Virus record (IMG/VR): IMGVR_UViG_3300022562_000333
Span: 1 to 64,000 of that record
Strand: one strand, 5' to 3'
DNA: 64,000 nt
From: a virus
Positions within the stretch are counted from its first letter, which is position 1, and each line of letters begins with the position of its first letter. The translations under genes were made by a program, and so were the position numbers. Below the pieces are notes generated by a model. The model did no database searches, had not been told where the DNA came from, and saw nothing but the letters and a program-made list of their open reading frames with translations. Shown piece after piece: positions 5,032 through 60,013 of this stretch.

Positions 5032-5943
5032 TCATTCTGTTTTCATCTGCATTTGGAGCCTAACGGCTTCTTGGAATGCTTCGTGAGCTGTCTTGGCCTT
5101 CGGCTTGACCTTCGGTTGGATCGTCCAACCTCGGACATGACCGATGACAGCCGCTACGTGCTTACACACACGGTTGATACGCTGAGGGTCCTTAATGTTG
5201 GGTGTAGAGGCCGTACCCCGAGGCTTGCCGTCGATGTACTCCTCTCCCTTCGCGTGAAACTCCGAACCTAACCAGCGCCAGGCGGGGCACGAACAGGTGA
5301 AGTTGACGTCCATCTTGGCCAAGGCTTTGACTACCCCTTTGCGGGTCGCCTTGAGTTTGACGATCTTCGATCCGTTACCGCAGTCGACCGAGAAGAGCCA
5401 ACGGAGGTTCCCAATGTCCACACGTTTGACGGACACTGAGCAAGTGCTCGCTCGCTCCGTGACCTTGGGGTTCAACCCCTGCTCGATCTCGGCAAACCGA
5501 GCTGCGATTCGAGCCGACCCGTCAAGAGGTACCAGACGGGAGTGAGCCGTACGTAGAAGCCAGAGCTGGACGACGTTCTCAACGAGAGCGGCGTTGTGCC
5601 GGTTCGGGATCTTGTCCCGATACGGGTACTTCGTCTTCGAGTAGTCGTTGTCCGGACGATCCCCAAGCCCGTTGTAGTTGGGCTTCGCGTGCTCGTGGTT
5701 GATCTCGTCGCCACGTCCCTGTTGCTTCAAGAGGTCGTCGGCGTTGTCGACGTGGTACATCGACTGGTCGTTCTTGGTAGGCTCCCGAGGTCCCTCGTTG
5801 GAGGGCTTATTGTAGGTGGCGGATCCTGGAATGTCTGGGGAGAGAGATACACCCTTCCCGGCCGGGTCACCACTTGGGAGCTTCGACTCCGAAAGCGCTG
5901 GACCTCCCGCTGTACCGTTAGGGGGGCGGAAGACGAACTTCAC
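5032..5943 (-). CDS. SWIM-type zinc-finger protein (303 aa)
   Basis: FTCSCPAW ... VCKHVAAV (CxC-xn-CxH), preceded by a low-complexity N-terminal half and an RIAARF peptide. Confidence 0.75.
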   Translation of the reverse strand: MKFVFRPPNGTAGGPALSESKLPSGDPAGKGVSLSPDIPGSATYNKPSNEGPREPTKNDQSMYHVDNADDLLKQQGRGDEINHEHAKPNYNGLGDRPDNDYSKTKYPYRDKIPNRHNAALVENVVQLWLLRTAHSRLVPLDGSARIAARFAEIEQGLNPKVTERASTCSVSVKRVDIGNLRWLFSVDCGNGSKIVKLKATRKGVVKALAKMDVNFTCSCPAWRWLGSEFHAKGEEYIDGKPRGTASTPNIKDPQRINRVCKHVAAVIGHVRGWTIQPKVKPKAKTAHEAFQEAVRLQMQMKTE

Positions 5944-5949
5944 GGGATC

Positions 5950-6675
5950 TTAACCAGCCTTGTCCTTGACGACGTTCTTGTTTTTTTCCCACTCGTCGGC
6001 GATCTGCTCCAGGTCTTCGTCGGAAAGAGTAGGATTGGCCTTCTTGAAGCCGTCCTTAACCTCTTCGCGGGAGCTAGCTTGGATCGGCCCCATCGCCTGA
6101 ACCGCCTCTTGAGCTGTCTGCGAGAGCGCCATCTTGATACGGTGAAGACCGCCGATGATGACGTGCCGATTCGGATTGGGGTTCTCGTCGATGTAGTCAG
6201 CAAGACCCCGGAGCGCAGCGGATACGAACTTGGTCGAGGCGAGCCGGAGCGTTGCGAACTTCCCGCTCTGTGCTTGTGGGGTGGGCGGTGGGGCAAACGG
6301 GTTCTTGGGTTGAACGTTCGGGGAACGCCGGTCGATATGACGGATCCGTACGTCCTTGAGGACCCGCTCCAGCTCCTCCACCTTCTCCGGCTTGAGCTGT
6401 TGCTTCAACTCCTCGTAGTCCAGGCGTGAGGCCGCGAGCGCTGTAGCGTCCAGAGCCTTGTCCAGACGGAAGAGGGCATCTGGGAGTCCGTAGATGACGT
6501 CCCCAGCCACCTCATAGAAGTGGTCCCGGTGGGTCGACTGCGCAATCAGGCGCACGGCCTTGTCCACGAAACCTTTGAGCTGGTCGCAACGAAGGCGGGC
6601 GTCGGTCAACTCCTCTTGGAGATAGACCAAGGCACCCGCCTCCTTGTCATGCCCCTCGTGCTTCTCGTCAGCCAT
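5950..6675 (-). CDS. Hypothetical helical protein (241 aa)
   Basis: Intact ORF with several K/R-x-A sites and the late-type motif upstream. Confidence 0.7.
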   Translation of the reverse strand: MADEKHEGHDKEAGALVYLQEELTDARLRCDQLKGFVDKAVRLIAQSTHRDHFYEVAGDVIYGLPDALFRLDKALDATALAASRLDYEELKQQLKPEKVEELERVLKDVRIRHIDRRSPNVQPKNPFAPPPTPQAQSGKFATLRLASTKFVSAALRGLADYIDENPNPNRHVIIGGLHRIKMALSQTAQEAVQAMGPIQASSREEVKDGFKKANPTLSDEDLEQIADEWEKNKNVVKDKAG

Positions 6676-6713
6676 CGCAAGACGAGAAGCTACAAGAGAA
6701 GTATGTGAGCCGT

Positions 6714-8000
6714 TTACGCTGCGAACGCCTCGGGGAACTCCTCCAAGAGCAACTTCTTGAAGTCATCCGACTCCGCCGCGAAGATCGCTCGGATCACGTC
6801 CAGGCGATTCTCGAAGTGCAGGCGAATCATGGCAAGACGGCGTTTCCAGTGGTCCCCAAACTCGTAAGTGTCGGGAAAGTCCTGGCAAAGCGCCTTGGCG
6901 ATGCTGCGTCGAGCATCGGCTGTCCCGTCCTTCTCGATCTTGGAGTTGCCTTCTTCCGAGGTCGCTGTCTGTTGGACGGCCTGTGTGTTCGGAAACGCCT
7001 TCTTGGGGCCGTTCGTGTTCTTGAACGTCATCCCCTCAACCGTGACCGTACTCTCCTGAGCCTTCCCGCCCATCCCGGTCGGGTCAGCGATTTCCGTACC
7101 GCCACCCGTGGAAAGGGTCGTCTGGATCCCCTCCGACTGGGTGACCCGCTGGGCCTGCGGGACTTGAGCGACCACGCGGGTCTGAGGTTGAGCCTGAGCC
7201 GCCACGACGGTCCTCTGAGCCGGCTGGGCCGGTCGAGAGCCGGGTTGGTTGTAGCTTGCGAGGTTGGTCGTGGTGGCTTGAGGAGGGACGTAACCTGCCG
7301 TACGGCTCATCACGTCCCCTTTGCGGGCTTCCTTCACGGCCAAGTAGTCCGCCCGTTGCTCTTCCGTCATCATCGACAAGAGCTGGTCTTCCGAGAGCCC
7401 TTGGCCCGGCTGGACCTTGACCAGCTCGGCATCCCGGATAGCCGTACCCACCGTGTTCGGGGTCACCGTCGTCTCTGCCCGAGCCCTCGTCAGAAAGGCT
7501 CGTTCAACGGGAACGCCAAACTCGGCCCCTCCCATCTCGATACCTCGACCCCCACCCGTTTGACGGGCGATGCCACCACCGGCCGTTCTCTGTTGGTGAG
7601 CCCTCACCGCTTGGGTTTGCTGAGAGGCTGCCGATTGACGTTCCCCACGGGACATCACGATACGCTCATCCGACTCGACGGTGGTGATCGCCGTCTTCCT
7701 CGCCGGCTGCAAGGGGTTCTGCCCGAGGTCGTTGGCCGATCGGACTTGGATGTTCGCGGACGGGTTCGCCTCGATAGGCGCCTCCGGATCGTACTCGTCA
7801 GCCGGGATGAGCCAACCGAGCTTGATGGCCCCACGGAGCGTCGGGAGCACGAACTTCACACCCCCTACCTCTACGTTGGTCCCGTCGAAGAGGACTTCCA
7901 TCTGCGCCTGGACCTGGTATCCAGTGGCACCTAGCTGAAAGCTGCGGGTCGAGATGTACGACACCATCTGGCCCGGTCTGAAATTCATCTGCATCGTCAT
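6714..8000 (-). CDS. Hypothetical protein with a Q/T/G-rich central linker (428 aa)
   Basis: Intact ORF with globular ends and a low-complexity middle. Confidence 0.7.
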   Translation of the reverse strand: MTMQMNFRPGQMVSYISTRSFQLGATGYQVQAQMEVLFDGTNVEVGGVKFVLPTLRGAIKLGWLIPADEYDPEAPIEANPSANIQVRSANDLGQNPLQPARKTAITTVESDERIVMSRGERQSAASQQTQAVRAHQQRTAGGGIARQTGGGRGIEMGGAEFGVPVERAFLTRARAETTVTPNTVGTAIRDAELVKVQPGQGLSEDQLLSMMTEEQRADYLAVKEARKGDVMSRTAGYVPPQATTTNLASYNQPGSRPAQPAQRTVVAAQAQPQTRVVAQVPQAQRVTQSEGIQTTLSTGGGTEIADPTGMGGKAQESTVTVEGMTFKNTNGPKKAFPNTQAVQQTATSEEGNSKIEKDGTADARRSIAKALCQDFPDTYEFGDHWKRRLAMIRLHFENRLDVIRAIFAAESDDFKKLLLEEFPEAFAA

Positions 8001-8057
8001 CTGGTCCCAGCCTCTCTATAGGGGGTCTATACCGAAGGCGGGCTTACAAGATGATTA

Positions 8058-8096
8058 ACAACAGAGAGGCGGGCCGTTGGAACGACCCGCCTCTCT
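8058..8096 (-). terminator. Terminator-like hairpin downstream of HU
   Basis: AGAGAGGCGGG..CCCGCCTCTCT inverted repeat followed by GTTGTT on the minus strand. Confidence 0.7.
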
Positions 8097-8113
8097 TATG
8101 ACTTCTTCTGCGG

Positions 8114-8443
8114 TCACTTCTTCCCGCGACCCTTGCCTGAGTCGGGGAGCTGACCCACCGTCACCTTGAGGGCCTTGACGAACCGAGCCTTGAGCTTCTT
8201 CGAGGCCGGCTTGGCAGGTACCGTCATCTGAGCCCCAGTCGCCGGGTTCCGAGCCTTGCGCTCAGGCTTCGGACCGACTTTCACGAGGATCAGCTTCGCG
8301 ATGCCAGGCACCGTAAACTGGTTCTCCTTCTTGAGAGTCTTCCCGCAGACCAAGTTGAGGGCGTTGAGAAACGCCTTCACATGGGTCTTGGTGGTACCGT
8401 CCATCTCCTCAGCAATGGCGCTAATGAGTTGCGTCTTCGTCAT
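8114..8443 (-). CDS. hup: HU/IHF-family DNA-binding protein
   Basis: MTKTQLISAIAE ... VPGIAKL ... RKARNPATG ... VPAK matches the HU signature. Confidence 0.92.
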   Translation of the reverse strand: MTKTQLISAIAEEMDGTTKTHVKAFLNALNLVCGKTLKKENQFTVPGIAKLILVKVGPKPERKARNPATGAQMTVPAKPASKKLKARFVKALKVTVGQLPDSGKGRGKK

Positions 8444-8542
8444 CTGGTTCCTTCCGATCTAGTTCGTATTCAGGGAGGGGCACGCCCATCGTGCGCCATA
8501 GTAGCTAGTTACACCAACAGGTACTCCCCCAAAGCTAAGAAA

Positions 8543-9016: not shown

Positions 9017-9036
9017 AGGCCACCTCTACACCGGGT

Positions 9037-9699: not shown

Positions 9700-9704
9700 G
9701 AAGA

Positions 9705-10646
9705 TCAGGCAGGTGGTCGACCCACCTTCCGAGGGTGCGGGATGTTGTACATCCTCAAGTAACGGTCGATGGTCGTGTGAGACTGCCCCAAGTCTTTAGC
9801 CATTCGCTTCACCGGCACCCCTTTGGCCGCCAGCTCCCGGAGAAGACTCTCGGGTAGAGCCTGCCTGACTTGGTAGTGCGGCCCTTGAAAGCCGAAATGG
9901 AGCTTGTGCTTCATGCACTCGGGCATGTGGGGCTTCACGAGGGAGATGAAAAGGTGGGCTTGGTCTTCCCCCTCGAAGAGAAAGTCCCCCGTCTTTCCGT
10001 TGTGAATTTCCCACCGGGGCTTGAGATTGAACCTGGCGAGGATTTCTAGGGCTACATCTCGACTGGAGGGCTGCATTCCGAACGTGATGCGGGGCCACCA
10101 CCCAACCGAACCATCGTCCATGAACCATACGGACAAGGCGAAGGCGTCCACGAGGTCTACAACTTTTCGGTCAAGGCGCTTAGGCCCGGTCTCGTCGTAG
10201 AAGGTCGGGTACCATTCGTTGAGGCTCGGGTGAGCTACTGTCTCGAACCGCCACCCTTTGAAGGTGCCTTCGGGTTTTTTCCAAACGACCGGCTTGACCC
10301 CGCTCTTGACCCACGACCCCCACTGAACCGCCTTCCACTCGATGTACTCCCGTTGGGCATCCGAATGGTTTTCAAGGAACCGGGTCGAGTTGGGTAGCCG
10401 ACCCAACCGCCCGTCCCCGAGCATCGACCCTACCAAAAGTGACCGGAGCCTACCTTCGATGGAGGTCACCTCATTGCGTTCCGCCCGAGAGACGGTTTCG
10501 ATTCCGAACCGTTTTCGCCAAGACCGAACCCTCTTGAGTGTGGCGCCTTGTCCGATCCGGTCGACGATGGCCTGGTCGGTGAGCTTCTCGACTTCGTAGA
10601 GTTGGCGTAGGGCTTCGGGAGGAAGGGGGCAGTCGATAGGTCTCAC
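9705..10646 (-). CDS. Free-standing LAGLIDADG homing endonuclease with N- and C-terminal HTH
   Basis: Two motifs, LVGSMLGDG and LSVWFMDDG, with HTH-like segments at both ends. GTG at 10646 is preferred (track start 10682). Confidence 0.88.
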   Translation of the reverse strand: MRPIDCPLPPEALRQLYEVEKLTDQAIVDRIGQGATLKRVRSWRKRFGIETVSRAERNEVTSIEGRLRSLLVGSMLGDGRLGRLPNSTRFLENHSDAQREYIEWKAVQWGSWVKSGVKPVVWKKPEGTFKGWRFETVAHPSLNEWYPTFYDETGPKRLDRKVVDLVDAFALSVWFMDDGSVGWWPRITFGMQPSSRDVALEILARFNLKPRWEIHNGKTGDFLFEGEDQAHLFISLVKPHMPECMKHKLHFGFQGPHYQVRQALPESLLRELAAKGVPVKRMAKDLGQSHTTIDRYLRMYNIPHPRKVGRPPA

Positions 10647-10690
10647 TTGAAGTGAGGTAGCACCTAATTGGTCCGTTAGCAACGAAGTAC

Positions 10691-10731
10691 AAAAGCCGAG
10701 AGGCCACCCCGGTTTCCCGGAGCGGCCTCTC
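10691..10731 (-). terminator. Rho-independent terminator after the major capsid gene
   Basis: GAGAGGCCGCTCCGG-GAAA-CCGGGGTGGCCTCTC followed by GGCTTTT. Confidence 0.8.
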
Positions 10732-10759
10732 AGTTTTGGCTTATTCAGCCTGTTTCGTG

Positions 10760-11632
10760 TCAGACGCGGGTGACGATCAACCGCGTGAGACCACGCGGGT
10801 TGAACGCGCCGATGCCGACATTTTCAAAACAGGAGAAGCCGATGGTGCGGGCCTTCGGGTCGTCCGCCGAGAGGACCGTCAGCTCCGTACGAACCGGGAA
10901 GCGGCCGAAGTTCTCCGGCTCCGCACAGATGTACACGAACCCGGCCGGAACCAGGCGGCTCGTGATGATCTGGGCGCCCCAGAGCGTGGCCTGGAGGCCC
11001 GTCTTGAGGAGGACAGCCTGCGACTCGATGTCGAGGATGTCTCGGCCGAACTTGCGGATGTCCGCGTAGTCCGTCGCGTTCATGTAGATACGGGCAACCC
11101 GGAGGTCGTGCCGCTCCACTTCCGCGAAGGCGTCCGCGAGGACGGACGGCGAGATCGGAGCCACGACGTTGATGTCGGGGTTCGTCTGGCCGGGGAGGGT
11201 GTCGAAGCCCGAGACAGCGATGCTGTCGAGGACCGCGAACACACGCTCGTCTTCCGCCGCCTGGATCTGAGCCTTGGCGAGATCCTGGGACCGCTCGATG
11301 AGGTCGAAGCGGCGCTCCTTGATCTGCGTCAGCGGGATCTCGGGGTTCGAGGCGATCTCGAACAGCGGGAAGATCACACGACGGGGCTTCTGGATGGCAA
11401 GGATGTTCTCGCCCTCCTCGCCGACCACGTACGCCGTGACGTCCGGGTCCTTGTCGTAGATCGGAAGCGCTCCGTCCGGAAGCTGCTCGACCAGGAAGGT
11501 CTTGCGGCCGACCGCCGTGTAGTCACGACGGAGGCGGAGAGGCTGGATCATGGAGGCAGCGAGCTTCGCACGGCCAGCGGCCGTTTTGATGTACTCGCTG
11601 ATGATCTGTTGCTTGACGTCGTTGGAAACCAT
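10760..11632 (-). CDS. Major capsid protein, HK97 fold (290 aa)
   Basis: Last gene of the portal-protease-scaffold-decoration series, with a strong SD, highly biased codons and a terminator. The pattern SMIQPL..FEIASNPEI..QIQAAEDERVF..GFSCFENVG resembles, from memory, Bxz1-like mycobacteriophage capsids. Confidence 0.88.
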   Translation of the reverse strand: MVSNDVKQQIISEYIKTAAGRAKLAASMIQPLRLRRDYTAVGRKTFLVEQLPDGALPIYDKDPDVTAYVVGEEGENILAIQKPRRVIFPLFEIASNPEIPLTQIKERRFDLIERSQDLAKAQIQAAEDERVFAVLDSIAVSGFDTLPGQTNPDINVVAPISPSVLADAFAEVERHDLRVARIYMNATDYADIRKFGRDILDIESQAVLLKTGLQATLWGAQIITSRLVPAGFVYICAEPENFGRFPVRTELTVLSADDPKARTIGFSCFENVGIGAFNPRGLTRLIVTRV

Positions 11633-11656
11633 GTTCGTGCCTTCTTTCCTTTCCGC

Positions 11657-12307: not shown

Positions 12308-12369
12308 TGAATGCGTCTCCTATGGGCGGGAAAGCGTTGGGGCCTTCACATTCACATCTACATCTAGGC

Positions 12370-12433: not shown

Positions 12434-12438
12434 GCCAT

Positions 12439-13854
12439 TCAACGATCCGTAGGAAGCCCGAAAGCCTCCTTGACGTTCGGGGCCGAACCCCAGAGGGACG
12501 AGAGCTTGTCGACCTCGTTCCCGCTGCGACCCGAAGGACCCCCACCGATCTGACTCACGCCCTGCGTGGGGCGGGTACCAACGGTACGGGTAGAGGCGGT
12601 GCGAACCGCATGAGCCTGCTTCTGCTGACCCTCGCCGCCGTCCTGCGCCTGCTGGGCCTGCTGAGCCTCGTCGTTGGCGAAGAGCTGGCGGAGAACGTCG
12701 TCCTCCGGTCCGAGGGAAACCTCACCGACGTCCATCGACGGGGTCTCCAGCTCGATGTCCATGGCGGCCGGGGCAGCGGGGGCCTGCATCCCGCCGTCCG
12801 AGGCGAGCATCTGGTCGATGAGCTGGTCGTCACCCATCATCATGGGCTCCTGACCCTGAGCCATCGGCATCTGCTGCTGGCCTTGGCCCTGCATCTGCTG
12901 CTGAGCGAGCTGCTGGACGATCTGCTGCGCAGCCTGCATAGGGTCTTGACCCGACTGAACCGCCTGCTGGATCGCAGCCTGAAGCGCCTGCTGTTGTGCC
13001 TGCATCTGCTGCTCGTCAGCCTTCTTCTTGGCAGCCGCCTGGACCGGCATCTGCTGCTGGCCCTGAGCCTGCTGCTGCATCTGGGCGAGCTGCTGCTGCA
13101 TCTGGGCGAGCTGCTGCTGGAGCGCCTGAACCTGCTGCTGCGCCTGCATCTGCTGTTGCTGGGCCTGCTGCTCCTGCTGCGCCTGCATCTGCTGCTGCAT
13201 GGCCTGCTGGACCATCGCCTGGGCCGCTTGAGCGTCACCCTGCTGGAGAGCCTGGACAGCCTGAGCGACCTGATCTTGGTTCGCCTTCTTGTCCTCGCCT
13301 TCCTTCTTGTCCTCGGCCTCTTCCTTCTTCTTCTCCGCGTTCTCCTTGAACTGCGGAGGCATCTCGCCGCCCTGCTTGGCCTGACCCTCTTCCTCGTCAC
13401 CACCCTCCTCTTCCTCGTCGTCGTTGGCGAGGCGGGTGTACGTGGACATGACCTCCGAGTCCGGGAGGTACATGAACGAGATCGACTGCTCCTCGATGTC
13501 CGACTCGGAAGCCGTCTTGGGGAGCATCGCTCGGGCGATGGCAACGCAGAGGGCAGCCTTCTTGGTGAGGACTTCCTCCGAGGCCGTCTTCTCGGGGTGG
13601 TTGAAGGTGTCGCCACGCATCTCGGGCATGCCGATCTCGTTGCGCTTCACCTGCCCACCGCTGTACTCCGCCTCCCACGTCCCGTTGGACGGGTGGACGT
13701 CCTCAGCGAAGGACGAAGGATCCCCAGTCACGTACTTGTCAGCCGGAGGCTGGACCTTCACGTGATCCTGGTTCATGAGGTAGGGGTCGGCCGTCTTGAC
13801 GGTCGCCCGCTTGACGATCTCGTCATGGTTCCAGGTTGAGCGCTCGCGGGGCAT
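12439..13854 (-). CDS. Putative scaffolding/core protein, Gln-rich coiled coil (471 aa)
   Basis: Lies between the protease and decoration/MCP; long Q/A/M coiled coil, acidic patches and many KTA/KKA/KQA sites. Confidence 0.72.
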   Translation of the reverse strand: MPRERSTWNHDEIVKRATVKTADPYLMNQDHVKVQPPADKYVTGDPSSFAEDVHPSNGTWEAEYSGGQVKRNEIGMPEMRGDTFNHPEKTASEEVLTKKAALCVAIARAMLPKTASESDIEEQSISFMYLPDSEVMSTYTRLANDDEEEEGGDEEEGQAKQGGEMPPQFKENAEKKKEEAEDKKEGEDKKANQDQVAQAVQALQQGDAQAAQAMVQQAMQQQMQAQQEQQAQQQQMQAQQQVQALQQQLAQMQQQLAQMQQQAQGQQQMPVQAAAKKKADEQQMQAQQQALQAAIQQAVQSGQDPMQAAQQIVQQLAQQQMQGQGQQQMPMAQGQEPMMMGDDQLIDQMLASDGGMQAPAAPAAMDIELETPSMDVGEVSLGPEDDVLRQLFANDEAQQAQQAQDGGEGQQKQAHAVRTASTRTVGTRPTQGVSQIGGGPSGRSGNEVDKLSSLWGSAPNVKEAFGLPTDR

Positions 13855-13899: not shown

Positions 13900-15546
13900 T
13901 TAGAGTCCGAGGGAGTACAATCGGCCCTTCTCCACTAGAAGTGCCTTCTCGGACTCCATGAGGTCGCGTCCGACTACCTTCCGACAAGCCGCAAGGTAGC
14001 TATTTACATCTGCATACCGGCCCGTGCCGCCTACAGCGATCACAGTCCTGTAGACCCGAGCGTCCCCCGCCATGGAGGATCGCTTGGTGAGTCGATCGAC
14101 CAAACGGGACACCACAAGGATCTCCCGTCCTGAAAAGCGGTTTGCACGGCGTACCGCTTCCCATCCTCCATGGTCGTGAAGAATCAAACCTGCCAAGACC
14201 GCTCTTGCGGTTGACGGGGTCTTCACGGAAGCCATGACCACCTTCGCCCGCTCTCGCCACTTGGGGTAACGGAGCGAGGACTTGATCAAAGACTCGTTGG
14301 AGCTGTTCTCGTCGATGATCTTCTTGATCTCACCTTGCTCGCCCTTGGCAAGCTCTTGACGGACTCGCTCAACAACCTTGTCCGTCAAGGTCTGGTATAG
14401 GTCATCGACCACTTTCTTGAAGGGGTCCTCATCTTCTTTGGGGGCCTGCTCGCCACCTTCGCCCCCACCCTCACCAGGGAAGTCCTCTTCCGCCGTCTTG
14501 GCAGAAGCGATCTCTTGGCGACGCGCCGTCAGGTTGGCCTCAGCCCTCTCTTGTGTGGAGAAGGCCGGGGGAGCTTGGAGCACCCCGAGGGACGGGCCAT
14601 CGAAGAGGTAGGCGAGATGGTCGCCGGGGACCGCCTTCACCCCAACTCCTACGGGGGCGAGACGGGCGGCTTTCTGGAGAACGTTGGGATCGAAGGTGCG
14701 AGCCGGCTCCGAGAACGCGACCTGAATCTTCTTCTTCATCGCCTCGGCCATCTGAGCCGAAGCTGGGTCGAGGATGTTGCGGAGGACGGCCCCAGTAAAG
14801 GCGGGGTTGGCGACCCAAGAACCCTCAATGAACTTGACGGACCCCGGCTCGCGGTCGATGTGACCGCACAGCTCGGCGATCTTCCGGCGCTTCCCCATAG
14901 AGTCGAGGAAGAAGTTGCCCTTCTGGTACTTGATATGGCGGCAGAGCTGTAGCTCGTCCTCAGCCACGTTCCCACACTTGGTGCATTGGGTGAACGCGAC
15001 GTGGCAGCCCATCGACAACGTACCGAGCTGGCCGGTAGAGATGGCGTCGATCAGAGCCTTGTGCTTCTTGTCCGTGGCCACGAGGATGTCGACGTAGATC
15101 GAGTCCCCAATGTCCCGAGCGGCGGCGTCGATGATCTTGCCTTTCGACAGCTCCGGGATTTGGATGTGCTCGACGTAGTTCTCTGCGCCGATGAAGGTCT
15201 TGTAGGCCGCGAGGAGGAGCTTGCGCTCCCACGCATCATGGTTGTTGTTGATGTACTTCGTCGTCCCGACCGTGATGTAATAGTCGGGGTACTTCCGGTC
15301 GATCTGCACCCCATCGAACATCTGCTTGCCGAGGGCGCCACCGGGGTTCTCCGTGTCGACCGAAGCAATGATCGAACAATGGGAGAGCAGGAACTTGGAA
15401 GGGTCGTACTGCTGTAGAACGACCTGCGAAGCTGCCCGATCCTTAAATGTGTCAAGGCCGACTGCCGCCTGGCGGATCTCGTCCCAACCGACACGGTTGA
15501 TAGCCGGTTGAACCACCGAGGCGTGGGCGAACTTCGCGAAACCCAT
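13900..15546 (-). CDS. Prohead maturation protease (HK97-like) with a Cys/His insertion (548 aa)
   Basis: His (YVEH), Ser (LSMG) and FIEGSWVANPA match the ExSxVxxPA motif of HK97-type proteases; position upstream of the scaffold. Confidence 0.8.
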   Translation of the reverse strand: MGFAKFAHASVVQPAINRVGWDEIRQAAVGLDTFKDRAASQVVLQQYDPSKFLLSHCSIIASVDTENPGGALGKQMFDGVQIDRKYPDYYITVGTTKYINNNHDAWERKLLLAAYKTFIGAENYVEHIQIPELSKGKIIDAAARDIGDSIYVDILVATDKKHKALIDAISTGQLGTLSMGCHVAFTQCTKCGNVAEDELQLCRHIKYQKGNFFLDSMGKRRKIAELCGHIDREPGSVKFIEGSWVANPAFTGAVLRNILDPASAQMAEAMKKKIQVAFSEPARTFDPNVLQKAARLAPVGVGVKAVPGDHLAYLFDGPSLGVLQAPPAFSTQERAEANLTARRQEIASAKTAEEDFPGEGGGEGGEQAPKEDEDPFKKVVDDLYQTLTDKVVERVRQELAKGEQGEIKKIIDENSSNESLIKSSLRYPKWRERAKVVMASVKTPSTARAVLAGLILHDHGGWEAVRRANRFSGREILVVSRLVDRLTKRSSMAGDARVYRTVIAVGGTGRYADVNSYLAACRKVVGRDLMESEKALLVEKGRLYSLGL

Positions 15547-19300: not shown

Positions 19301-19601
19301 TCCCACCCTGCTCGGAGTCGGAAACCGAGACGTACTTCTTGGGGCCTGACTCCGCCCTCTTGAAGCGAGCAACAACACGACGAACCAAGACGAGGGAGCC
19401 CCCAACGTTCTTGTAGTTGAGGGACATGTCCGGATCGTTCTTGAGGTCCGTGTCCCCATCGGTATCGGGGTCGCGATCCGTCTGCATCTCCTCGCGGCGA
19501 CGGTCCTTACGAGGCGGCTTCTTCTTGGGTAGAGGACGAACGAGGCGCTCCGCCTCTTCGTCCTCTCGCTCGCCGTGGTCCTTCGTACCGAGGAAGTCCA
19601 T
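16362..19601 (-). CDS. Large charged head-module protein (1079 aa), possibly composite
   Basis: Lies between portal and protease; RVVARF peptide, EE[SP]K[GA] repeats and candidate internal starts at 17168 and 16763. Confidence 0.75.
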   Translation of the reverse strand: MDFLGTKDHGEREDEEAERLVRPLPKKKPPRKDRRREEMQTDRDPDTDGDTDLKNDPDMSLNYKNVGGSLVLVRRVVARFKRAESGPKKYVSVSDSEQGGKVVSVPEQTAKNNPSRYKPVKDKERSERESPGAKKPEGPKEESKGEESKGEESKGEESKGEEPKGEEPKAEEPKAEEPKAEEPKAEEPKAPEEKKAPDSSSEEQMAARVRERFKAKNYQNHPEFKEYTQNLPTTDDSGNFYDPKSKKRVPWDQLDPNEQSRLINDFATKKKRKSLDSKLDALDPKVKAAIQSLADPKSELSKKLDQYKKDGHPIEGIPPEKLIPALKGLNLPAKSIADLQGAASDLTKRETTKAEQEKAQAAEKNQKELEEAARKAQSAKDFKPPNRKPPTEEERLEVLNALWDMDPPLPSEIQVRLGSLHPEDAKLALSSYTKFNALDPPKNLKREIQEAGRNYVSDPLEVTSLPKYGVVKVQEDGKEVEKKLTFDKLTPGQKQQAVHEHRMKLLGASLASRSRVAKALVGNGIPKHLSTSLAHATLSAGSLSESERKKKVKTWATNLFTQSSSGYGKQEESDGRFGHVVRTTTRPTLSDKDRTKFIEAIKKLDPVGQQVAVAALQGEDYREAKARFLDPKSGDAIRPTDDPEDVARKLSQAQDMMSKAGKRYPSELSVIDPATILKVQTLKKLRDQDPAKARQVVTHIREDEVKRYHAKRSEWESKDKEHKTKQKAAQKEHDAWEKRKTKHEAKYAKDPYRAPPFDEPEPELLPDLEPPRPPIGYLRKLSEKDREKAKLDLKQLRRASLYSSYGLQKWQMGTTPPSNRDRTALYHGVEPYPKGHEGFAPYTKWNQPHRCDLGASDFDAILKSAKEWLKSPVLAKDIEGMVPDARFRAALDLAIHASRYNRAISPPLYNMMLAKLASQPADETLLTVHAATDRVAFSTEETEGNAMTVKFAKDQANAILGRLDKAAGFIQENYKKFGMDFDTAKAIVNDLDKTADEIEAAAFGEASLLKRQTEVLAASNPKLAKVLQQDSDEKYMGTFNAPMAPHQTDADEKYMGQFKDDQSEAVHEGKSTTGKPLAP
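19036..19182 (-). repeat. 15-bp coding tandem repeat, about 10 units (EESKG/EEPKG/EEPKA)
   Basis: Contiguous ttgg(g/a)ctcctca(gct/ccc) units with no spacers. Confidence 0.95.
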
Positions 19602-19634
19602 CCCACTCGGGGTCCGTCAAAAGACGAGTATCGG

Positions 19635-21440
19635 TCAGAAGCGACCTTGTTCCTCGGGAGCCGGCTCTGGTTTGACCTTGAGATCCAGGTACTTGGCGAT
19701 CTTGTCCATGATGTCCGTCTTCTCCGCCAACATCCGACCAACCTCGCCGTAAATGCCTCGGATAACCTCGTTGAAGGTCGAGTCGTTGACCGAGAACATG
19801 TCCCGCTCGATCTTCTCTTTGGTGTCTTGCGGATCGATGTTGAACATCTCCAGAATGAGGTCGATGCTGATCGACCCCTTCTGGTACAGGTTGAAGAGGG
19901 CGTCGTACGTATCCTGGCTGTCCCGCAAAGCGAGACGGGTGAACGACAGACGGGGGTAGAGGACGACCTCGTCACCCCACTCATCCTTCTCGACGAAGCC
20001 CTTTCGTCGGGCCACGGGCTTGAAGAGGTACTCTTCGACGTACTCTTGAAGCATCTCCCGAAAGAGGAGGTAACGGGTGTTGAGGACTTCCAGCTTGACG
20101 CGATCCCCGGAGAACGTGCTCTCTCCCGTGAGGAGGGACTCGGTAACCCCTAGCCCGGCGTAGAGCTGCTTGTCCGTGATGTCGTACTCCGAAGACAAGT
20201 CGAGCAGACGATCCCGAGCGCCAATCTCCTCCCAGTGGACCTCGTAGTTGGTGACGATCGAGTAGTCCGGATCCACAAGGGCGAGGTCGACCTGTTCACG
20301 TAGGTCATCCGTATCCACGTCAGAGAGGTTCTCACCCCAAACCAGTCGCTTGGGGGTCATCGCTCGATCGGCGATGAGGGTCTGGGCCTGCCGGAGCTTC
20401 TCGCGGTAGTAGAGGATGCGAAGGCAGCGGTCGAGGAGGCTGGCACCAAGCTCCTCACCAGCCCCACGACGGGCCGCCAAGTGGTAGCAGAACGAACCCT
20501 CATCCGGGTCCGTACCGAGCGGGATGAGCTTCCCGGACTCGATGTAGTCCCTCACTTCTTGAGGGATTTCCTCCGCCATTTGCGAAGCCTTGTCGTCCCC
20601 GGCCTTTGCTTGCTCGATGAGAGCACGGTCCCTATCCGAAGGGATCAGGTCGAGCGTAACCTTGTCCGTGAAGCTGAATGAAGCCAGCCGCACTTGGTCG
20701 ATAGGGAGGATGATGAGCTTGTCCCAGCCCTTGTAGTGCTCTTGGTAGTAGGCTAGCTCCCGGTCTTCCCGGTCCTCCATCTCCGTGATGGATTCCTCAA
20801 CCTCTTCATGCCCGTTCCCCTCTTCATCGAGGGTGGACTTGACGTTCTTGTCAATCTTGTGTCCTACGTTTGCAGGCACATCCACCGAACCATCCTCCGC
20901 GAACAGGAAGACGTTACCGTCGAGGTTGTAGTGGTGGGCGGCTGTAATCAAGCGTTGAAACAGCTTGATCCTTTGGCACATACGTTGAAAGAACGTGAGG
21001 ATGTACTTGCCGTAGTCGTTGGCGTCCTTGAAGCGCTCCGGGTAGGTGCGGGGAGTCGGCTTGGCCAACCGGACCTTGGACAGAGGTAGCTCTGTGTGGA
21101 GGTCGATCGCTTGACCTACAATGGGGTCGGTGTTGTAGAAGTGCCTGTAAATCTCCCGCTTCTCGCGGAGAGATTGAGGCAGCTCCAGAAAGTCTGTCGA
21201 GAGCTGCGGGGAGAAGAACGGGCTCGTCCCGGAAAGGGTCGTGTTCGCCCCTGAGATAGCGTTCGTGGGGAACGACCCCATCGCCGTCTTGTTGGATGCG
21301 GCTACCCGACGCGCCAAGCGCTCCTTCTCGGTAAGGTTCGACACCTTGCCTTTGGATGAGTAGGGAGCATGGGTCCACCGGCCGATCTGAGTATTCAGAA
21401 CGACGCTACTTGACGCGTTGGTGAACCGCTCGGAAGCCAC
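19635..21440 (-). CDS. Portal protein (601 aa)
   Basis: YRHFYNTDPIVGQAIDLHTELPL, DGNVFLF and G.S.L.R.....YREKLRQAQ, plus AGLGVTESLLTGE, are portal-like; downstream of TerL. Confidence 0.85.
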   Translation of the reverse strand: MASERFTNASSSVVLNTQIGRWTHAPYSSKGKVSNLTEKERLARRVAASNKTAMGSFPTNAISGANTTLSGTSPFFSPQLSTDFLELPQSLREKREIYRHFYNTDPIVGQAIDLHTELPLSKVRLAKPTPRTYPERFKDANDYGKYILTFFQRMCQRIKLFQRLITAAHHYNLDGNVFLFAEDGSVDVPANVGHKIDKNVKSTLDEEGNGHEEVEESITEMEDREDRELAYYQEHYKGWDKLIILPIDQVRLASFSFTDKVTLDLIPSDRDRALIEQAKAGDDKASQMAEEIPQEVRDYIESGKLIPLGTDPDEGSFCYHLAARRGAGEELGASLLDRCLRILYYREKLRQAQTLIADRAMTPKRLVWGENLSDVDTDDLREQVDLALVDPDYSIVTNYEVHWEEIGARDRLLDLSSEYDITDKQLYAGLGVTESLLTGESTFSGDRVKLEVLNTRYLLFREMLQEYVEEYLFKPVARRKGFVEKDEWGDEVVLYPRLSFTRLALRDSQDTYDALFNLYQKGSISIDLILEMFNIDPQDTKEKIERDMFSVNDSTFNEVIRGIYGEVGRMLAEKTDIMDKIAKYLDLKVKPEPAPEEQGRF

Positions 21441-21896: not shown

Positions 21897-21938
21897 CTAC
21901 ATTTTCTCGGCGAGCACAAGGGGCTCGTTATCAACAGG

Positions 21939-22475
21939 TTACAAGGTCTGAATGGTCATGAAGTTGTTGTTCACGGCTTTGGGGGGTTGGATGACCATAC
22001 CGACCAAACCCCCCAAAAACGGGGCGTCGGCAAGAGGCCCTCGCGGGTCACCAGACAAATCCCACTCATCTTCCTTCGTCCACAGGCCGCGAAGGGATAT
22101 GTATAGGAAATCGCTGGCATTGTAGGTAATTGGAACCAACGGCCCGCCCTGTCGAGACGTCCAGGTGTACGTCTCGAAAGAGGAGGTCGAGAAGAAACAC
22201 CCGCCGCTGAGCATGACTCCAAAGCGGTAGTGAGGTTGGTGGCCCGTGATGGAGGTGAACTTGTCGGCCGGTTCATCGGAGCCCCAGACAAGGAAGCCTG
22301 AGCAGACCCCATCGGCGTAGGTGACGAGAAACTCGTCCTTCGTGGAGTCGGCCCACTTCACACCCTGACCCCCGGCCCACCCGCCTTGAGCCATCGCCTC
22401 GTCGATCGTTACCGGGAGGTTGTCGCCCTTCCGGAAGAGGATGAGATCACGCCCTCGTACAATTTCGGTAGGCAT
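21939..22475 (-). CDS. Minor head decoration protein, paralog of 11657..12307 (178 aa)
   Basis: ATG at 22475 overlaps the TopIB stop (TGATG). ITYNASDFLYISLRGLWT and LVGMVIQPP align with LTYAAGDLLYASANGLLT and VVGVVKAAP. Confidence 0.65.
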   Translation of the reverse strand: MPTEIVRGRDLILFRKGDNLPVTIDEAMAQGGWAGGQGVKWADSTKDEFLVTYADGVCSGFLVWGSDEPADKFTSITGHQPHYRFGVMLSGGCFFSTSSFETYTWTSRQGGPLVPITYNASDFLYISLRGLWTKEDEWDLSGDPRGPLADAPFLGGLVGMVIQPPKAVNNNFMTIQTL

Positions 22476-23545
22476 CAGGCTTTCTCCGGCTCTTGCTTGC
22501 GCCCCGGCATCTTCCCCCAAGTCGTTACGACCGTCTTGAGAAGCTCGTTCTGCACGGGGTCGCCATTGAGGAGCCTCTCCCAAGACCCTCCCTGTTGACG
22601 AAACACCAAACGCATCACGTTGAAGTCGCGATCCTCCACAACCAGCTCATCCCCGAGCATGTGGTCCACGAGCTGCTTGATGATGCGGTTTCCAAAGAGG
22701 AGCGGGGGCTCAGGGGTGCAGTCGAACGAAGCCGCCTTGGCATTCAGCTTGTCGATGACCGAGCCATCATGGAGGTACGCTTCCTCCATCGCTGGTACGA
22801 GGTACTGGCTTCGTAGCGTAGAGGGCTCGTGACCGACCGCCTCGGCAGCCTCCGCTACGGCCTTCTTGAACTCAGCCTTCAGGATCTTGTCCTTGGCTTT
22901 ACGCTCGCGTGGTAGCTCCGGTCCGGCAGAACGGATCTTCTTGAGTCGGTCTTGGACTTCCCGGTTCGCATGAAGACCCCGGATGTCCTTAGCTGTGATG
23001 TCGAAGTCCTTGAGGTACCCGTTGACCGCCTTCGCATCCACACACCCACCGTCATAGGCGAAGATGCAGTCCTCTTTTCCCTTGGTGGAGTTGTACGCCT
23101 CACGAAGAGCCTTGAGGATCTGTGCGTCCGAGACCTTCTTCTCTTGTTTGACCCCTGACTTTCCGACGTACTTGACAGTGGCCGAACCCTTCCCGAAGGA
23201 AAGGTGGCCCCGCTGCCACCCGGTGACGCCAAAGTGCCCGTCATCCGCCGATTCGTCGTTTCCGACCCGCTCGTACGTGTGATCGATGAGGGCGACGGCA
23301 AGGGCCGTCAGCTTCGTGTGCAAGTCCTTGGACTTCAGGTCAGACTTCACCTTCGTCCGGAGCTTTCCCATGGAAGTCCGGAGCTTCTCGACTCGGTCCG
23401 CCTTCTGGTTGTTGCGGTTCGCAACCTGACGAGGCCCGTACTCGTAGACGGTCATCTCGTCCCCGGCGCGAGTTTTGACCTTCTTTTTGGACTTGTACCT
23501 CGCGGCCACCCGGAGCGAGATCGAGTCGAGCGGAGGGAACCTCAT
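22475..23545 (-). CDS. DNA topoisomerase IB (bacterial/poxvirus type) (356 aa)
   Basis: ERVGND (R), YVGKSG (K), TAKDIR (R) and VGH...SQYL (H, Y) form the catalytic pentad. Confidence 0.92.
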   Translation of the reverse strand: MRFPPLDSISLRVAARYKSKKKVKTRAGDEMTVYEYGPRQVANRNNQKADRVEKLRTSMGKLRTKVKSDLKSKDLHTKLTALAVALIDHTYERVGNDESADDGHFGVTGWQRGHLSFGKGSATVKYVGKSGVKQEKKVSDAQILKALREAYNSTKGKEDCIFAYDGGCVDAKAVNGYLKDFDITAKDIRGLHANREVQDRLKKIRSAGPELPRERKAKDKILKAEFKKAVAEAAEAVGHEPSTLRSQYLVPAMEEAYLHDGSVIDKLNAKAASFDCTPEPPLLFGNRIIKQLVDHMLGDELVVEDRDFNVMRLVFRQQGGSWERLLNGDPVQNELLKTVVTTWGKMPGRKQEPEKA

Positions 23546-25545
23546 CTTGACCTTACCCTCGGTACAAGACGATCCCTATGAACCCCGTGCTGGCGCATCC
23601 TAGCCCGCTGATAGTGGGTCATAGAAGCCGGCCCCCTCGGTTGGGTCGGGTAGTTCCGAGGGGCCGTGATCTTGAGGTTGCTGATCCGCTCCAAAGAGAG
23701 CCAGATGGCTCGTACAAGGGCGTCCGTCACGTCATCATGAGCCCCTTGAATCTGAGGAGCCTCTACGATGATCTGGTTCCTAGCCCGCTGCGTAGCCTGG
23801 AGACTGAGGATCTCCTCGATGAGCGGCGAGTGCTTGGATTGAGCCTCCGCTTGCGAAGGTAGCGGATAGTCGTAGAGCGTGATGCGCTTGTCGAACATGA
23901 GTAGCTTCGTCGCCTGGTACATCTTGCTCGTCGTATCAGGCTTGAAAAACTCACTCTTGAACTGCTTCAAGCCCTTCTTGTGGAGCGCCTCTTCGAGCGG
24001 GAGCCCGTTCCAACGGTCGAACAACCCAGCCGAGATGTAGAACTTCTTGGTGAGGAGGTGGATCCAGTTGGCGATCTCCTCGAAGTCAAGTCGCTCTACG
24101 TTCTCCAGGGTTTTGGCGTAGTCAGTGAAAGGAGAGGTGAGGTGGGGGTTGGCTTCCCTCCACGACATGCCTGCGTACCAAGCCTCGTGGTAGTCGAGGA
24201 TGATGTTGGCACCCTCGGTATGAGTGATCGCGACGGTCGTACCGTCGTTGATGAGCCCTACGTCGATCCCCATTTGATGAGGGAAGCGCGGAGGTCCGTA
24301 CGTCTTGGGACGAAGCTCCTTTTGGATGCACTCGATGAGGTCCGCTTCACGTTCGATCCAACCACGAACGCGGTCGGAGAAGAGGGCACCGTGCTCCGTC
24401 ATGAAGACGGAGGGGTCCTCGTGGTACTTCTCCTTGTAGTAGCTCGTTGGGACGGTCGGGTTGACCTCCCAGGTCGGCGCCTGGATGACGAGCATGTTGT
24501 CCGAGCCAGGCCCTCGGCTCATGCCGAGGTGGTACAGCTCGTAGAACTTACCCGCCTTGTTTAGAGGCGAGGAGATGCAGATGATTCGAGCTTCGGACTC
24601 CGTTGCCGATCCATTGATAGGGAGCCCCGTTGCAGGGTCCTTTGGGGAGAAGGCAGCGGTTGACGGCGTGATGGCGTCGTAGATGTCCTTGGCGCTCGAC
24701 TTACCCTTGTCCTGAAAGTGGGCGATCTCGTCGAGGATGATGACGATGTTACCGGACCCTCGAAGACCCTTTGAAATGCTGGCCTTGAAGGTGACGCGGA
24801 TGCTCGCCTTGCCGTTGAACGAAGTGAACTTACCGTCCGAGTGACGGACCGTAGGCCCGAACCTCTCAATGTCGTAGGGGGTTCGGAGCTGGACGTAGGA
24901 GAGCGTGTTGTTGGCGATGTACGGCTGGAAATACTCGCACTTCGCCATGTGCGAGGTCACGTCATTGAAGAGGAGACCCGCCTGGTCCTTGTCCGTGGCG
25001 ACCGAGATGATTTGGATTCGGTTGCCGTTGGGGAGCCCGTAGTACGCTTGCGGGTTGCCCAACGAGAGGAGCCTGTAAAGCTCGTAACTCGCAAAAACAG
25101 CCGATAGGGTGGTCTTCCCAGCACGGCGACCGATGGGGAGGGTGAGCTGTCTACGGAGGTGGTCCTGCTCCCCGATGTTGCACCGACCTTCGTTGTAGAG
25201 GTAGTGCAGGTACTCCTTCTCAGTGAAGGTGTACAACGTCTTCGTGTTGAACATGTCGGAGATTTTGATCCGACGATTCTCGTCCTCCGGGAGCGTGTCA
25301 TCCAGAGGCATGTGGTAGTACAGCTTTACGATGAACCGCTGTACTGGAAACAGCTTCATGTTGAGCCCCCACGGGGACTCGACATACTGAAGCACGTTGA
25401 AAATACGTTGCGTCCGACCGTTGACCGTGACGGTAGCTAGGTCAACCCCATTGACAGCCGCCGTCTCCGTAAGCGCACGGGCACGATGCCCGGCGCTACG
25501 GATCATATGGGCTAGGTTGGACTGTTGCTTCTTTTCGCGAGCCAC
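23542..25545 (-). CDS. terL: Terminase large subunit (667 aa)
   Basis: Walker A GRRAGKT, Walker B IILDE, coupling motif ISSP, and nuclease GIDVG ... HDDVTDA. Confidence 0.93.
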   Translation of the reverse strand: MAREKKQQSNLAHMIRSAGHRARALTETAAVNGVDLATVTVNGRTQRIFNVLQYVESPWGLNMKLFPVQRFIVKLYYHMPLDDTLPEDENRRIKISDMFNTKTLYTFTEKEYLHYLYNEGRCNIGEQDHLRRQLTLPIGRRAGKTTLSAVFASYELYRLLSLGNPQAYYGLPNGNRIQIISVATDKDQAGLLFNDVTSHMAKCEYFQPYIANNTLSYVQLRTPYDIERFGPTVRHSDGKFTSFNGKASIRVTFKASISKGLRGSGNIVIILDEIAHFQDKGKSSAKDIYDAITPSTAAFSPKDPATGLPINGSATESEARIICISSPLNKAGKFYELYHLGMSRGPGSDNMLVIQAPTWEVNPTVPTSYYKEKYHEDPSVFMTEHGALFSDRVRGWIEREADLIECIQKELRPKTYGPPRFPHQMGIDVGLINDGTTVAITHTEGANIILDYHEAWYAGMSWREANPHLTSPFTDYAKTLENVERLDFEEIANWIHLLTKKFYISAGLFDRWNGLPLEEALHKKGLKQFKSEFFKPDTTSKMYQATKLLMFDKRITLYDYPLPSQAEAQSKHSPLIEEILSLQATQRARNQIIVEAPQIQGAHDDVTDALVRAIWLSLERISNLKITAPRNYPTQPRGPASMTHYQRARMRQHGVHRDRLVPRVRSR

Positions 25546-25549
25546 GAGG

Positions 25550-26140
25550 TCACCTCAAGGTGTTCGTAGCTCGTTCCTCCCACCCTTCCATCACGGAGGC
25601 GAAGCGGTTGAAAAAGAGGTTCATAGCCTCTTCCGGGAGCGTCTCCTGTGCTACCTCACGCATCGTCTCGACCCACATGGTGAAGAGCTTCTGCATGCGC
25701 TCGCTGCTCAGGTTGATGGACTCCGAGTCGATCTCTTTGATCTTCAACTCGATGTCGGCGATCTTCTTGAGCGCTTCGATGCGACGAGTTGAGACTTGCC
25801 CCGTCTCCTTGCCTCGCTTCTGCGTTTCGATCCGCTCGAAGTGAAGGCTTGCTGCCTCCGCTGCGACCTCTTTCTTGATGAGGAAGAGAACGTCCAGGGC
25901 ATCCCCGTGCTCCTCGATCTTCTTGAGGACCGGGTCCGAAGAGATGAACGCCTCCCGAGCCCGCGTCATCTCCGCGTGGTACTCAAGGTCGCTCGTGGTC
26001 GGCTTGCGCTCGATCTTGCGGGGTCGACCTCGACCTCGTTTGACCCCCTCCAGACGATGACTGTCGGCGCCGTGAGGAGCGTCTTGCTCCGGGAGCAAGT
26101 GAAGCACCGCTTCCACGCGCTCTGTTCCGTCCTTCTTCAT
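25550..26140 (-). CDS. Putative terminase small subunit with an AT-hook (196 aa)
   Basis: Immediately upstream of terL; helical, with KRGRGRPRK. Confidence 0.6.
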   Translation of the reverse strand: MKKDGTERVEAVLHLLPEQDAPHGADSHRLEGVKRGRGRPRKIERKPTTSDLEYHAEMTRAREAFISSDPVLKKIEEHGDALDVLFLIKKEVAAEAASLHFERIETQKRGKETGQVSTRRIEALKKIADIELKIKEIDSESINLSSERMQKLFTMWVETMREVAQETLPEEAMNLFFNRFASVMEGWEERATNTLR

Positions 26141-26147
26141 GGTCTCC

Positions 26148-26534
26148 TCACTTCACCGATTTAGTGCCGCCCCCACCCTCAGTTTCAATGAGGTATTGGG
26201 AGAGGTTCTTTACAGTAGCATAGCCTTTGTCTTTGGGAATTTGCTTCTTGATGACTTCGGCTAGGTCTTTGCCAGTTTCAGCCAAGTTGCGGACACTGGT
26301 TTGGTCGGGCTTAGGGCTGAATACATCCTCGGGTCGAAGGTCTCTTCGGTTGGGGGAGACGGTTTCATCATGGCCTTCATCCATTGGCTTGCCGTGCTCC
26401 TTGACGATGGAGCGGTCGATGCCTTTGGGTCGGTTGACAGGCTTCACCAAGTCCTTGTCCTTCTTACGCTGGCCAGGAGGCTGGTCGGCGTGGAGGAACC
26501 GGGCTGCTACCCGAAGGATGAGGGCGTCGGACAC
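26148..26534 (-). CDS. Hypothetical head-region protein with N-terminal RVAARF (128 aa)
   Basis: GTG at 26534 directly follows the upstream stop and gives MSDALILRVAARF. Confidence 0.65.
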   Translation of the reverse strand: MSDALILRVAARFLHADQPPGQRKKDKDLVKPVNRPKGIDRSIVKEHGKPMDEGHDETVSPNRRDLRPEDVFSPKPDQTSVRNLAETGKDLAEVIKKQIPKDKGYATVKNLSQYLIETEGGGGTKSVK

Positions 26535-26536
26535 GT

Positions 26537-27160
26537 TCAGTGCCCCCAACCAGAGGTCGTCTCGTAGACAGGCTTCCCGCTCCACTTGTGAGCGTTGTGA
26601 CCATCCACCTTGAAGGAACCCCCAGGGGTCGGGCGAGCCCGAACCGGACCGCTCACGTACTTGCCCTGCTGGGGGGCAACCATGGTGACATTCTTGTCCG
26701 TGCTGACCTCGCGCTTCGCGACCTCACGAACAAGGATGTCCTTCCCCCGGATCTCGACCACCTCGTAGAAGTCCACGTTGGTCTGGTCGTAACCCCAAGA
26801 GGTGTTGTAAATCTCTCCGACTTGGATGCCGTGTTGGTAGTTACGGCGCTCCTCAAGCTGCTTTTGCTTGTACTCAAGGACCCGTTTACGCGAGTCGATG
26901 GCATCCCTGATAGCCGCCTGCCTACTCGCCTCGCTCCGAAACGAGTTGTGGAACATCGGTTTGTTCTGCTTGGCGGCAAACGCGATGGCTAGAAGGAGGG
27001 GTTCTCCCGTCCGCACATTGGGAGACTCGTACGTCCAGATCGCCAAGTCCGTCCCTTGAGGGTCAACGTTGGGGGGCGTACCCCGTACCTCTTTCGGTAA
27101 GTACGATTCCCGTGGGAGGGTGAATCGGGCTGCCACACGGGCGATCAAGGCGAGGGACAT
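26537..27160 (-). CDS. Hypothetical protein with N-terminal RVAARF and an SWGYDQTNVDFY domain (207 aa)
   Basis: Starts MSLALIARVAARF; late-type motif upstream. Confidence 0.75.
   Translation of the reverse strand: MSLALIARVAARFTLPRESYLPKEVRGTPPNVDPQGTDLAIWTYESPNVRTGEPLLLAIAFAAKQNKPMFHNSFRSEASRQAAIRDAIDSRKRVLEYKQKQLEERRNYQHGIQVGEIYNTSWGYDQTNVDFYEVVEIRGKDILVREVAKREVSTDKNVTMVAPQQGKYVSGPVRARPTPGGSFKVDGHNAHKWSGKPVYETTSGWGH

Positions 27161-57967: not shown

Positions 57968-60013
<2,046 letters not shown>

Follow-up and report, generated by a model that had tools for sequence, protein, structure and literature searches.

A swappable peptide tag on unrelated proteins of a huge uncultured phage and its possible role in capsid loading

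What does one short peptide do on several unrelated proteins of the same phage? The question is raised by the first 64 kb (hereafter the window) of the 83,250-base IMG/VR viral record IMGVR_UViG_3300022562_000333, which has a CheckV completeness of 17%. An initial annotation of the window had pointed out a hexapeptide, R-[VI]-[AV]-A-R-[FY], in topoisomerase IB (TopIB) and several other proteins, and had proposed that it directs them into the capsid. Judging from the distribution of its sequence, the peptide is very probably a real modular, swappable address or docking tag on unrelated proteins. Analogy suggests that the address may be the virion, that is, that the tag serves capsid loading; we give this reading, the best of those considered, somewhat less than an even chance.

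Five copies of the tag in the window

Cores of the R-[VI]-[AV]-A-R-[FY] type were read on the minus strand at all five main sites, as originally described (Table 1). Codon choice varies between the copies; thus the conservation is indeed at the level of the peptide, and a signal at the RNA or DNA level was rejected. The claimed location at or near the N-terminus holds for the 207-aa protein, TopIB and the product of the 145-aa open reading frame (ORF), whereas the core is internal in the 1079-aa protein (residue 74) and in the 303-aa protein (residue 144). For the 145-aa ORF, the likeliest start is the GTG codon at 26534, 2 bases past the upstream stop codon, so that its tag would form the extreme N-terminus. 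Structural matches of the 207-aa protein in the ESM Atlas begin at residues 15-17, and thus the tag lies outside the fold. The internal tag of the 1079-aa protein follows a charged N-terminal module of 75 aa, conserved from the first methionine within the family, and that of the 303-aa protein is preceded by a low-complexity N-terminal region.

The carriers have nothing in common besides the tag. The best pairwise E-value among them is 0.03, in agreement with the claim that they are unrelated, and paralogy of the carriers was rejected. Two other assignments had to be abandoned. The 303-aa protein had been described as a SWIM protein, for which only a sub-threshold Pfam match (E 0.21) was found. 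The portal sequence LARRVAAS had been considered a variant of the tag. It scores 13 bits on the position matrix described below, and the portal orthologues read LARRIRTSN or MARRASQS in this place; we regard it as a chance resemblance that is not conserved.

The frequency of the tag was estimated in 1075 genes predicted by a crude codon-usage caller: 83 in this contig, 320 in its closest relative and 672 in a complete 512-kb relative. A strict regular expression matched 14 times, compared with a mean of 0.2 and a maximum of 1 in 40 residue shuffles, although these 14 matches include orthologues and are not independent; 10 of them lie within 30 aa of the ORF start, where 0.025 are expected. Thus the excess over shuffled controls, one of the checks originally suggested, is confirmed. 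A looser expression, applied to the six-frame translation of the window, yielded five matches, all in long minus-strand ORFs, and none in the remaining five reading frames. Back-translated into a DNA pattern, the tag was found five times on the reverse strand of the 83-kb contig and never on the forward strand, the reversed control matching neither; a further DNA search gave 23 matches against 3 for its reversed control. Finally, a position matrix with a cut-off of 14 bits gave 39 sites, of which 25 are close to an ORF start, whereas shuffled proteins gave 3 and reversed ones 1; the matrix was built from 26 instances picked by regular expression in the same proteins, so its count is generous. 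Carriers constitute 7 of the 83 genes called in this contig, 19 of 672 in the 512-kb relative and 9 of 320 in the closest relative.

The motif is short, it consists of common residues, and the genome has 60% G+C, all of which would make coincidence easier. However, the five copies in the window alone are far above chance, the controls yield few or no matches, orthologues keep the tag though its flanks vary, and no similarity between the carriers extends past the tag. Chance and common ancestry of the carriers are refuted by these controls and retain next to no probability.

Tag anatomy and further carriers

The hexapeptide is the core of an amphipathic, basic, helix-like short linear motif of about 15 residues, [DE]-x-[LI]-[IV]-x-R-V-[AV]-x-R-[FY]-x-x-A. 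When the copies are aligned on the aromatic residue (position 0), [DE] occupies position -11 or -10, [LI] -8, [IV] -7, R -5, V -4, [AV] -3, R -1 and alanine +3. The mean helical hydrophobic moment is 0.49, compared with 0.26 for random 14-mers from the same proteomes, which is consistent with the amphipathic basic helix proposed at the outset. As judged by eye, the residues after the tag are polar or charged, and no hydrophobic core of about 12-20 residues, as in a Sec or Tat export signal, was seen. No clear common promoter motif was observed in upstream regions.

The tag is mostly N-terminal. Some copies are in tandem and some are internal, including those in J-domain proteins; in three proteins of the 512-kb genome the tag lies in the C-terminal region, and small proteins have it at both ends (G001, 470130-470420). 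Beyond the window, the contig encodes two further carriers, which brings the total to seven: a GNAT-like protein, whose tag is N-terminal if the likely GTG start is used, and a 155-aa protein that begins with the tag. Among the carriers of the 512-kb relative there is a DRAT-like ADP-ribosyltransferase (1e-10); for ten carriers of the relative, PHROGs provided no function.

Conservation and interchange of tags

The tag is kept in TopIB orthologues across related loci, and the orthologue of the 303-aa protein in the closest relative retains RIAARF. For the 145-aa protein the tag is kept in 14 of the 21 related loci that hold the gene and is present in 106 of the 120 database relatives listed. 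In the family of the 1079-aa protein it is canonical in some lineages, in tandem in the closest relatives, and reduced to a basic helix in others. The same family (loci L004-L024) varies in length: the charged N-terminal 75 and the C-terminal 290 or so residues are conserved, and the middle part of about 700 residues occurs in some lineages only, resulting in forms of 365 aa and of 1060-1320 aa.

The 207-aa family has 324 database relatives with a variable N-terminus and at least 584 matching IMG/VR stretches. Its distant members, from smaller contigs, begin directly at the conserved core and have no tag. On contigs of huge phages, the members are extended at the N-terminus, and these extensions can be sorted into discrete types, along with other forms: type a, RVAxR[FY]; type b, LIRLAH...NPxLR; type c, YSYDRR; and type d, xLWKVA. 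The same four types occur in the GNAT family (175 relatives, 120 of them listed), directly before its own conserved core, and the full-length GNAT homologues of Agrobacterium phage Atu_ph07 and Salicola phage SCTP-2 begin just past the position of the tag. Types a, b, c and d were assigned to 37, 5, 3 and 6 of the 120 listed members of the 207-aa family and to 28, 5, 10 and 3 of the 120 listed GNAT relatives; the classes are rough, based on regular expressions and matrices, and leave more than half of each family unclassified, many of these members resembling a degenerate type a. Thus, from one huge phage to another, the same families bear different N-terminal peptides, which are interchangeable and of at least four kinds, the tag being one of them. 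A further N-terminal type, resembling [IV]AxELLKVAKEL, was seen on 207-aa-family proteins of loci L152, L155, L158, L161 and L205, twice in L152.

Sharing among other proteins within one genome was observed for types a, b and c. Type a is shared among the proteins of this clade. Type b occurs in eight proteins of the 485-kb uncultured phage LR745208.1, in seven of them at the start, and never in shuffles. Type c, in the form M(S)YDYDRR or YSYDR, starts three proteins of this contig at 64-73 kb, against 0.15 expected from shuffles. The type b leader comprises about 30 residues, M(T)TLRSKL[IV]RLAHxNPxLRPxLLPLLKEA, and stands on otherwise unmatched proteins (loci L092-L097), two bearers being in the head region. 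The strict type a motif has no matches in LR745208.1 and in Tunturiibacter phage Tunturi_5. No swapping of tags on orthologues was found between LR745208.1 and this clade, where the LIRLAH-tagged proteins have no homologues.

Capsid loading as a possible function

As a loading signal, the tag would dock its bearers onto one common acceptor. The most likely place of this acceptor would be the head under assembly, with the acidic scaffold-like protein and the portal/terminase vertex as candidates; within the head, a fast-evolving scaffold, protease or vertex protein would be likelier than the major head protein. The particle would then take up accessory enzymes and deliver them together with its DNA: TopIB, the GNAT acetyltransferase, the ADP-ribosyltransferase, zincin-like peptidases and J-domain proteins. 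In such a scheme the tag would stand in for the covalent linkage of the so-called polyvalent phage proteins.

Several observations are in line with this proposal. Firstly, the tagged genes of the window are concentrated in the head block (of its 28 genes 5 are tagged, of the other 35 none; Fisher p 0.014). The enrichment that had been suggested as a check is thus seen in the window, whereas in the 512-kb relative most carriers are encoded elsewhere than in the head module. At the front of the terminase-portal gene string are the two small tagged genes, for the 207-aa and 145-aa proteins, and the 1079-aa gene comes after the portal. The start of the TopIB gene overlaps the stop codon of the large terminase gene (TerL) by 4 nt (ATGA, 23542-23545), which suggests that translation of TopIB may be coupled to that of the DNA-packaging motor of a genome of about 0.5 Mb. 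The tagged head-block proteins have pI values of 8.8-9.6, and the scaffold-like protein has a pI of 4.5.

Secondly, the carriers resemble enzymes whose transport in phage heads, or injection, is known or has been predicted. A mobile-element-type domain, which the initial annotation had named among the cargo, found no confirmation. Relatives of the GNAT family are fused to ART-PolyVal (3.7e-15, 1.7e-19) and to NUDIX domains. A 1209-aa protein with a weak, near-threshold ParB-like match ends in the core of the 207-aa protein. One ESM Atlas cluster near the 207-aa protein is automatically named 'large polyvalent protein associated domain', which we treat as a lead only.

The closest known analogy is phage T4, in which internal proteins are loaded via a short N-terminal capsid-targeting sequence that is cut off by the prohead protease, and the cargo is variable. 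The likeness had been claimed from the beginning, and part of it stands: here too a short, modular and usually N-terminal peptide (two of the five window copies being internal) is found on several proteins of a single phage that are not related to one another; some carriers are basic proteins and one, in a relative, is an ADP-ribosyltransferase, which recalls the T4 internal proteins and Alt; and the carrier genes vary between relatives. In other respects the two differ. The tag has no sequence likeness to the T4 signal, no protease site follows it and no T4-type protease was matched, and its copies may be internal, tandem or C-terminal and are of several types interchangeable across lineages; packaging, a fact in T4, is here what we infer. 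An N-terminal region is also required for loading into phage-like particles in the PVC and other eCIS systems and in the Dar system of phage P1. Those signals differ from the tag in being longer and poorly conserved in sequence.

The second analogy is provided by the polyvalent proteins, described in the relevant passages of Iyer et al. 2017 (PMC5512222) as including GNAT with ART-PolyVal domains and as predicted to be delivered with the DNA early in infection. Similar domains are seen here in the GNAT family, with its ART-PolyVal-fused relatives, and in the ADP-ribosyltransferase; the zincin-like and ParB-linked matches are sub-threshold. The difference is in the architecture: according to the same passages, 2-15 disparate domains are combined there in one polypeptide, whereas on this contig the carriers are single-domain proteins with the same tag on each. 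In both cases injection is a prediction.

On the other side, a number of observations weigh against capsid loading. Past the tag there is no conserved cleavage site, only alanine at +3 being favoured, and the contig contains no Pfam matches to S77 or S78 proteases. Tags are at times internal, tandem or C-terminal, in contrast to the N-terminal T4 signal. Two carriers on the contig are outside the head module, and in the 512-kb genome most carriers are at about 273-281 kb and 460-491 kb, the head genes being at 414-419 kb. Two tag types can occur in one genome, which a single acceptor in the head would not require. The major head protein is an unlikely acceptor because it is 84% identical in LR745208.1, a phage with a different main tag. 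The GNAT homologue of Atu_ph07 (AUZ95136.1) is untagged. In whole-genome matrix scans, LR745208.1 has only degenerate copies of type a, one of them internal to an ORF in which HAD and TopIB are fused, and the cultured relative Tunturi_5 has no matches. When 207-aa homologues were compared with neighbours up to 10 kb away for a common tag, the test was noisy, and a clear excess over controls was seen at only about 4-5 of 52 loci. Finally, the zincin matches of several carriers are mostly below Pfam cut-offs.

The 508 aa of the fusion ORF (LR745208.1 404201-405727; L002 21975-23501) combine a HAD-like N-terminal part, with DxDGT recognized by eye, and the TopIB core, and also hold about 50 residues resembling the N-terminus of the 1079-aa family.

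Other possible destinations

The strongest competitor, which is possible but in our view rather doubtful, is a common hub outside the particle: a chaperone system, a replication or transcription factory, or a compartment made by the phage. The host Hsp70, recruited via phage J-domain proteins, and a phage GroEL-like protein are candidates. J-domain proteins do bear the tag, sometimes internally, and a GroEL-like protein, recognized by eye from its N-terminal sequence, is encoded in the window at 57968-59632. Every tag type consists of a hydrophobic core between basic residues, and Hsp70 prefers just such cores with basic flanks, which would suit a chaperone site. Moreover, the scatter of carriers over the 512-kb relative and the internal and C-terminal copies suit a general docking motif. 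However, a chaperone site would require neither uniformity within a genome nor unit-wise swapping among lineages, none of the 35 genes in the replication and transcription part of the window is tagged, and the genes of tagged proteins are strung together with those of the terminase and the portal.

It is improbable, in turn, that the tag serves as a leader for recognition by a processing or modifying enzyme, such as a protease acting on a timed degron or a propeptide, or a modifier of the kind found in the synthesis of ribosomally made, post-translationally modified peptides (RiPP). The position of the tag directly before the conserved cores of the 207-aa and GNAT families and the preference for alanine at +3 would fit such a role. 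On the other hand, no conserved cleavable residue follows the tag, a leader would hardly be expected in tandem or at the C-terminus, the material examined contains no candidate enzyme that co-varies with the tag, and a radical-SAM partner is not suggested, as none of five related genomes has a Radical_SAM match over the Pfam cut-off.

Slightly less probable still is self-association, in which the tags, as amphipathic helices, would bundle their bearers into one co-assembly, comparable to an inner body or a condensate, so that a separate receptor would not be involved. Such an arrangement would explain the tandem copies, the small proteins tagged at both ends and the amphipathic character, but with about four helical turns the tag is short, and its two conserved arginines on one face are unfavourable for pairing.

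Genomic context

On sequence comparison, the window is a piece of a huge phage, because relatives of its portal lie on contigs of up to 512 kb and on the 485-kb genome of LR745208.1; the whole genome would have roughly 400-500 kb. The portal was compared with that of 21 IMG/VR contigs (up to 512 kb; identity 57-86%), four of which have terminal repeats, and is 52% identical to the portal of LR745208.1, 40% to that of Tunturi_5 and 25% to that of Bacillus phage G. Nearly all genes of the window are on the minus strand. The head and packaging module occupies 5-29 kb (Table 1). Pfam and PDB sequence searches assigned no type to the protease candidate or to the scaffold-like, 145-aa, 207-aa and 1079-aa proteins, and the family searches in Pfam and PHROG gave no match for the scaffold-like protein.

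Some neighbouring genes deserve mention. A gene for a homing endonuclease of the LAGLIDADG/HNH type (9705-10682; PHROG 4e-11) adjoins that of the major head protein. Immediately upstream of the terminase, a 196-aa protein (25550-26140) contains an AT-hook-like stretch GRGRPRK (Pfam AT_hook E 0.38, below the cut-off); it is a candidate small terminase. In loci L016, L018 and L024 (from about 3537 onward) the terminase frame extends over about 1120 aa between stop codons; it has a large N-terminal extension or a fusion, because the terminase match begins only at residue 556 or so. Past the window, the contig encodes an EF-Tu-like protein with a GHVDHGKTTL motif, read by eye in its N-terminal sequence (G000 80676-81935).

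Table 1. Tag copies, their carriers and genes of the head and packaging module. Positions are those of the window, unless the contig (G000) or LR745208.1 is named.
Feature	Position	Strand	Evidence or remark
Tag, extreme N-terminus of the 207-aa protein (gene 26537-27160)	27113..27160, core RVAARF 27122-27139	-	sequence
Tag, N-terminus of the 145-aa ORF protein (about 128 aa, gene 26148-26534)	26487..26534, core RVAARF 26496-26513	-	sequence
Tag, residues 6-20 of TopIB	23486..23530, core RVAARY 23495-23512	-	sequence; Topoisom_I domain from residue 43
Internal tag, residues ~68-82 of the 1079-aa protein	19353..19397, core RVVARF 19362-19379	-	sequence
Internal tag, residues ~139-153 of the 303-aa protein (gene 5032-5943)	5485..5529, core RIAARF 5494-5511	-	sequence
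Portal 'RVAAS', outside the tag family	21294..21308	-	not kept by orthologues; PSSM 13.3 bits
Large terminase (TerL)	23542..25545	-	PHROG terminase large subunit 9e-19
TopIB	22475-23545	-	Pfam Topoisom_I 4.2e-25, residues 43-243
Portal	19635..21440	-	PHROG portal 2e-27
1079-aa protein, gene directly after the portal	16362-19601	-	no typing by Pfam or PDB sequence searches
Head maturation protease candidate	13900..15546	-	phrog_18299 1.6e-12
Acidic Gln-rich scaffold-like protein	12439..13854	-	pI 4.5; between the protease candidate and the major head protein
Major head protein	10760..11632	-	phrog_2522 1.3e-51; 84% identity to LR745208.1
Tag of the GNAT-like protein, N-terminal if the likely GTG start is used	G000 78097-78114		sequence
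155-aa protein beginning with the tag	G000 81963-82430		weak zincin-type matches, E 0.02-0.06
Type c bearers	G000 66584-66829, 67255-67581, 71732-72940		
Type b bearers	LR745208.1 14562-15269, 20283-20732, 226068-226730, 274678-275832, 351465-352536, 389893-390948, 398171-398575		

Implications

Within the literature library searched, no paper contains the strings RVAARF, RVAARY, LIRLAH or YDYDRR, and the keyword passages of two jumbo-phage reviews (PMC7824862, PMC13282480) contain no such tag. What appears to be new here is the particular tag, with its helix-like anatomy and its non-terminal copies, and the alternation of the same four tags on two unrelated carrier families of the polyvalent type. 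This swapping provides a natural experiment, in which the acceptor could be sought by co-variation.

A broader view, which we offer tentatively and consider doubtful as a whole, is that huge phages own a small alphabet of at least four such signals (RVAxRF, LRSKLIRLAH-NPxLR, YSYDRR and xLWKVA) that load separate, fast-changing, host-attacking enzymes for injection, and that these enzymes, including the topoisomerase and the J-domain protein, are an unlinked form of the polyvalent proteins. If this were true, the injected arsenal of an uncultured phage would be readable from its sequence alone. Should the tag be a loading signal, the proteins brought into the cell by huge uncultured phages could be listed from sequence only, and a short peptide for placing foreign proteins in large capsids would be at hand. 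If the destination is another one, a uniform, swappable docking peptide on about 3% of the phage proteins would still point to a hub that has not been studied.

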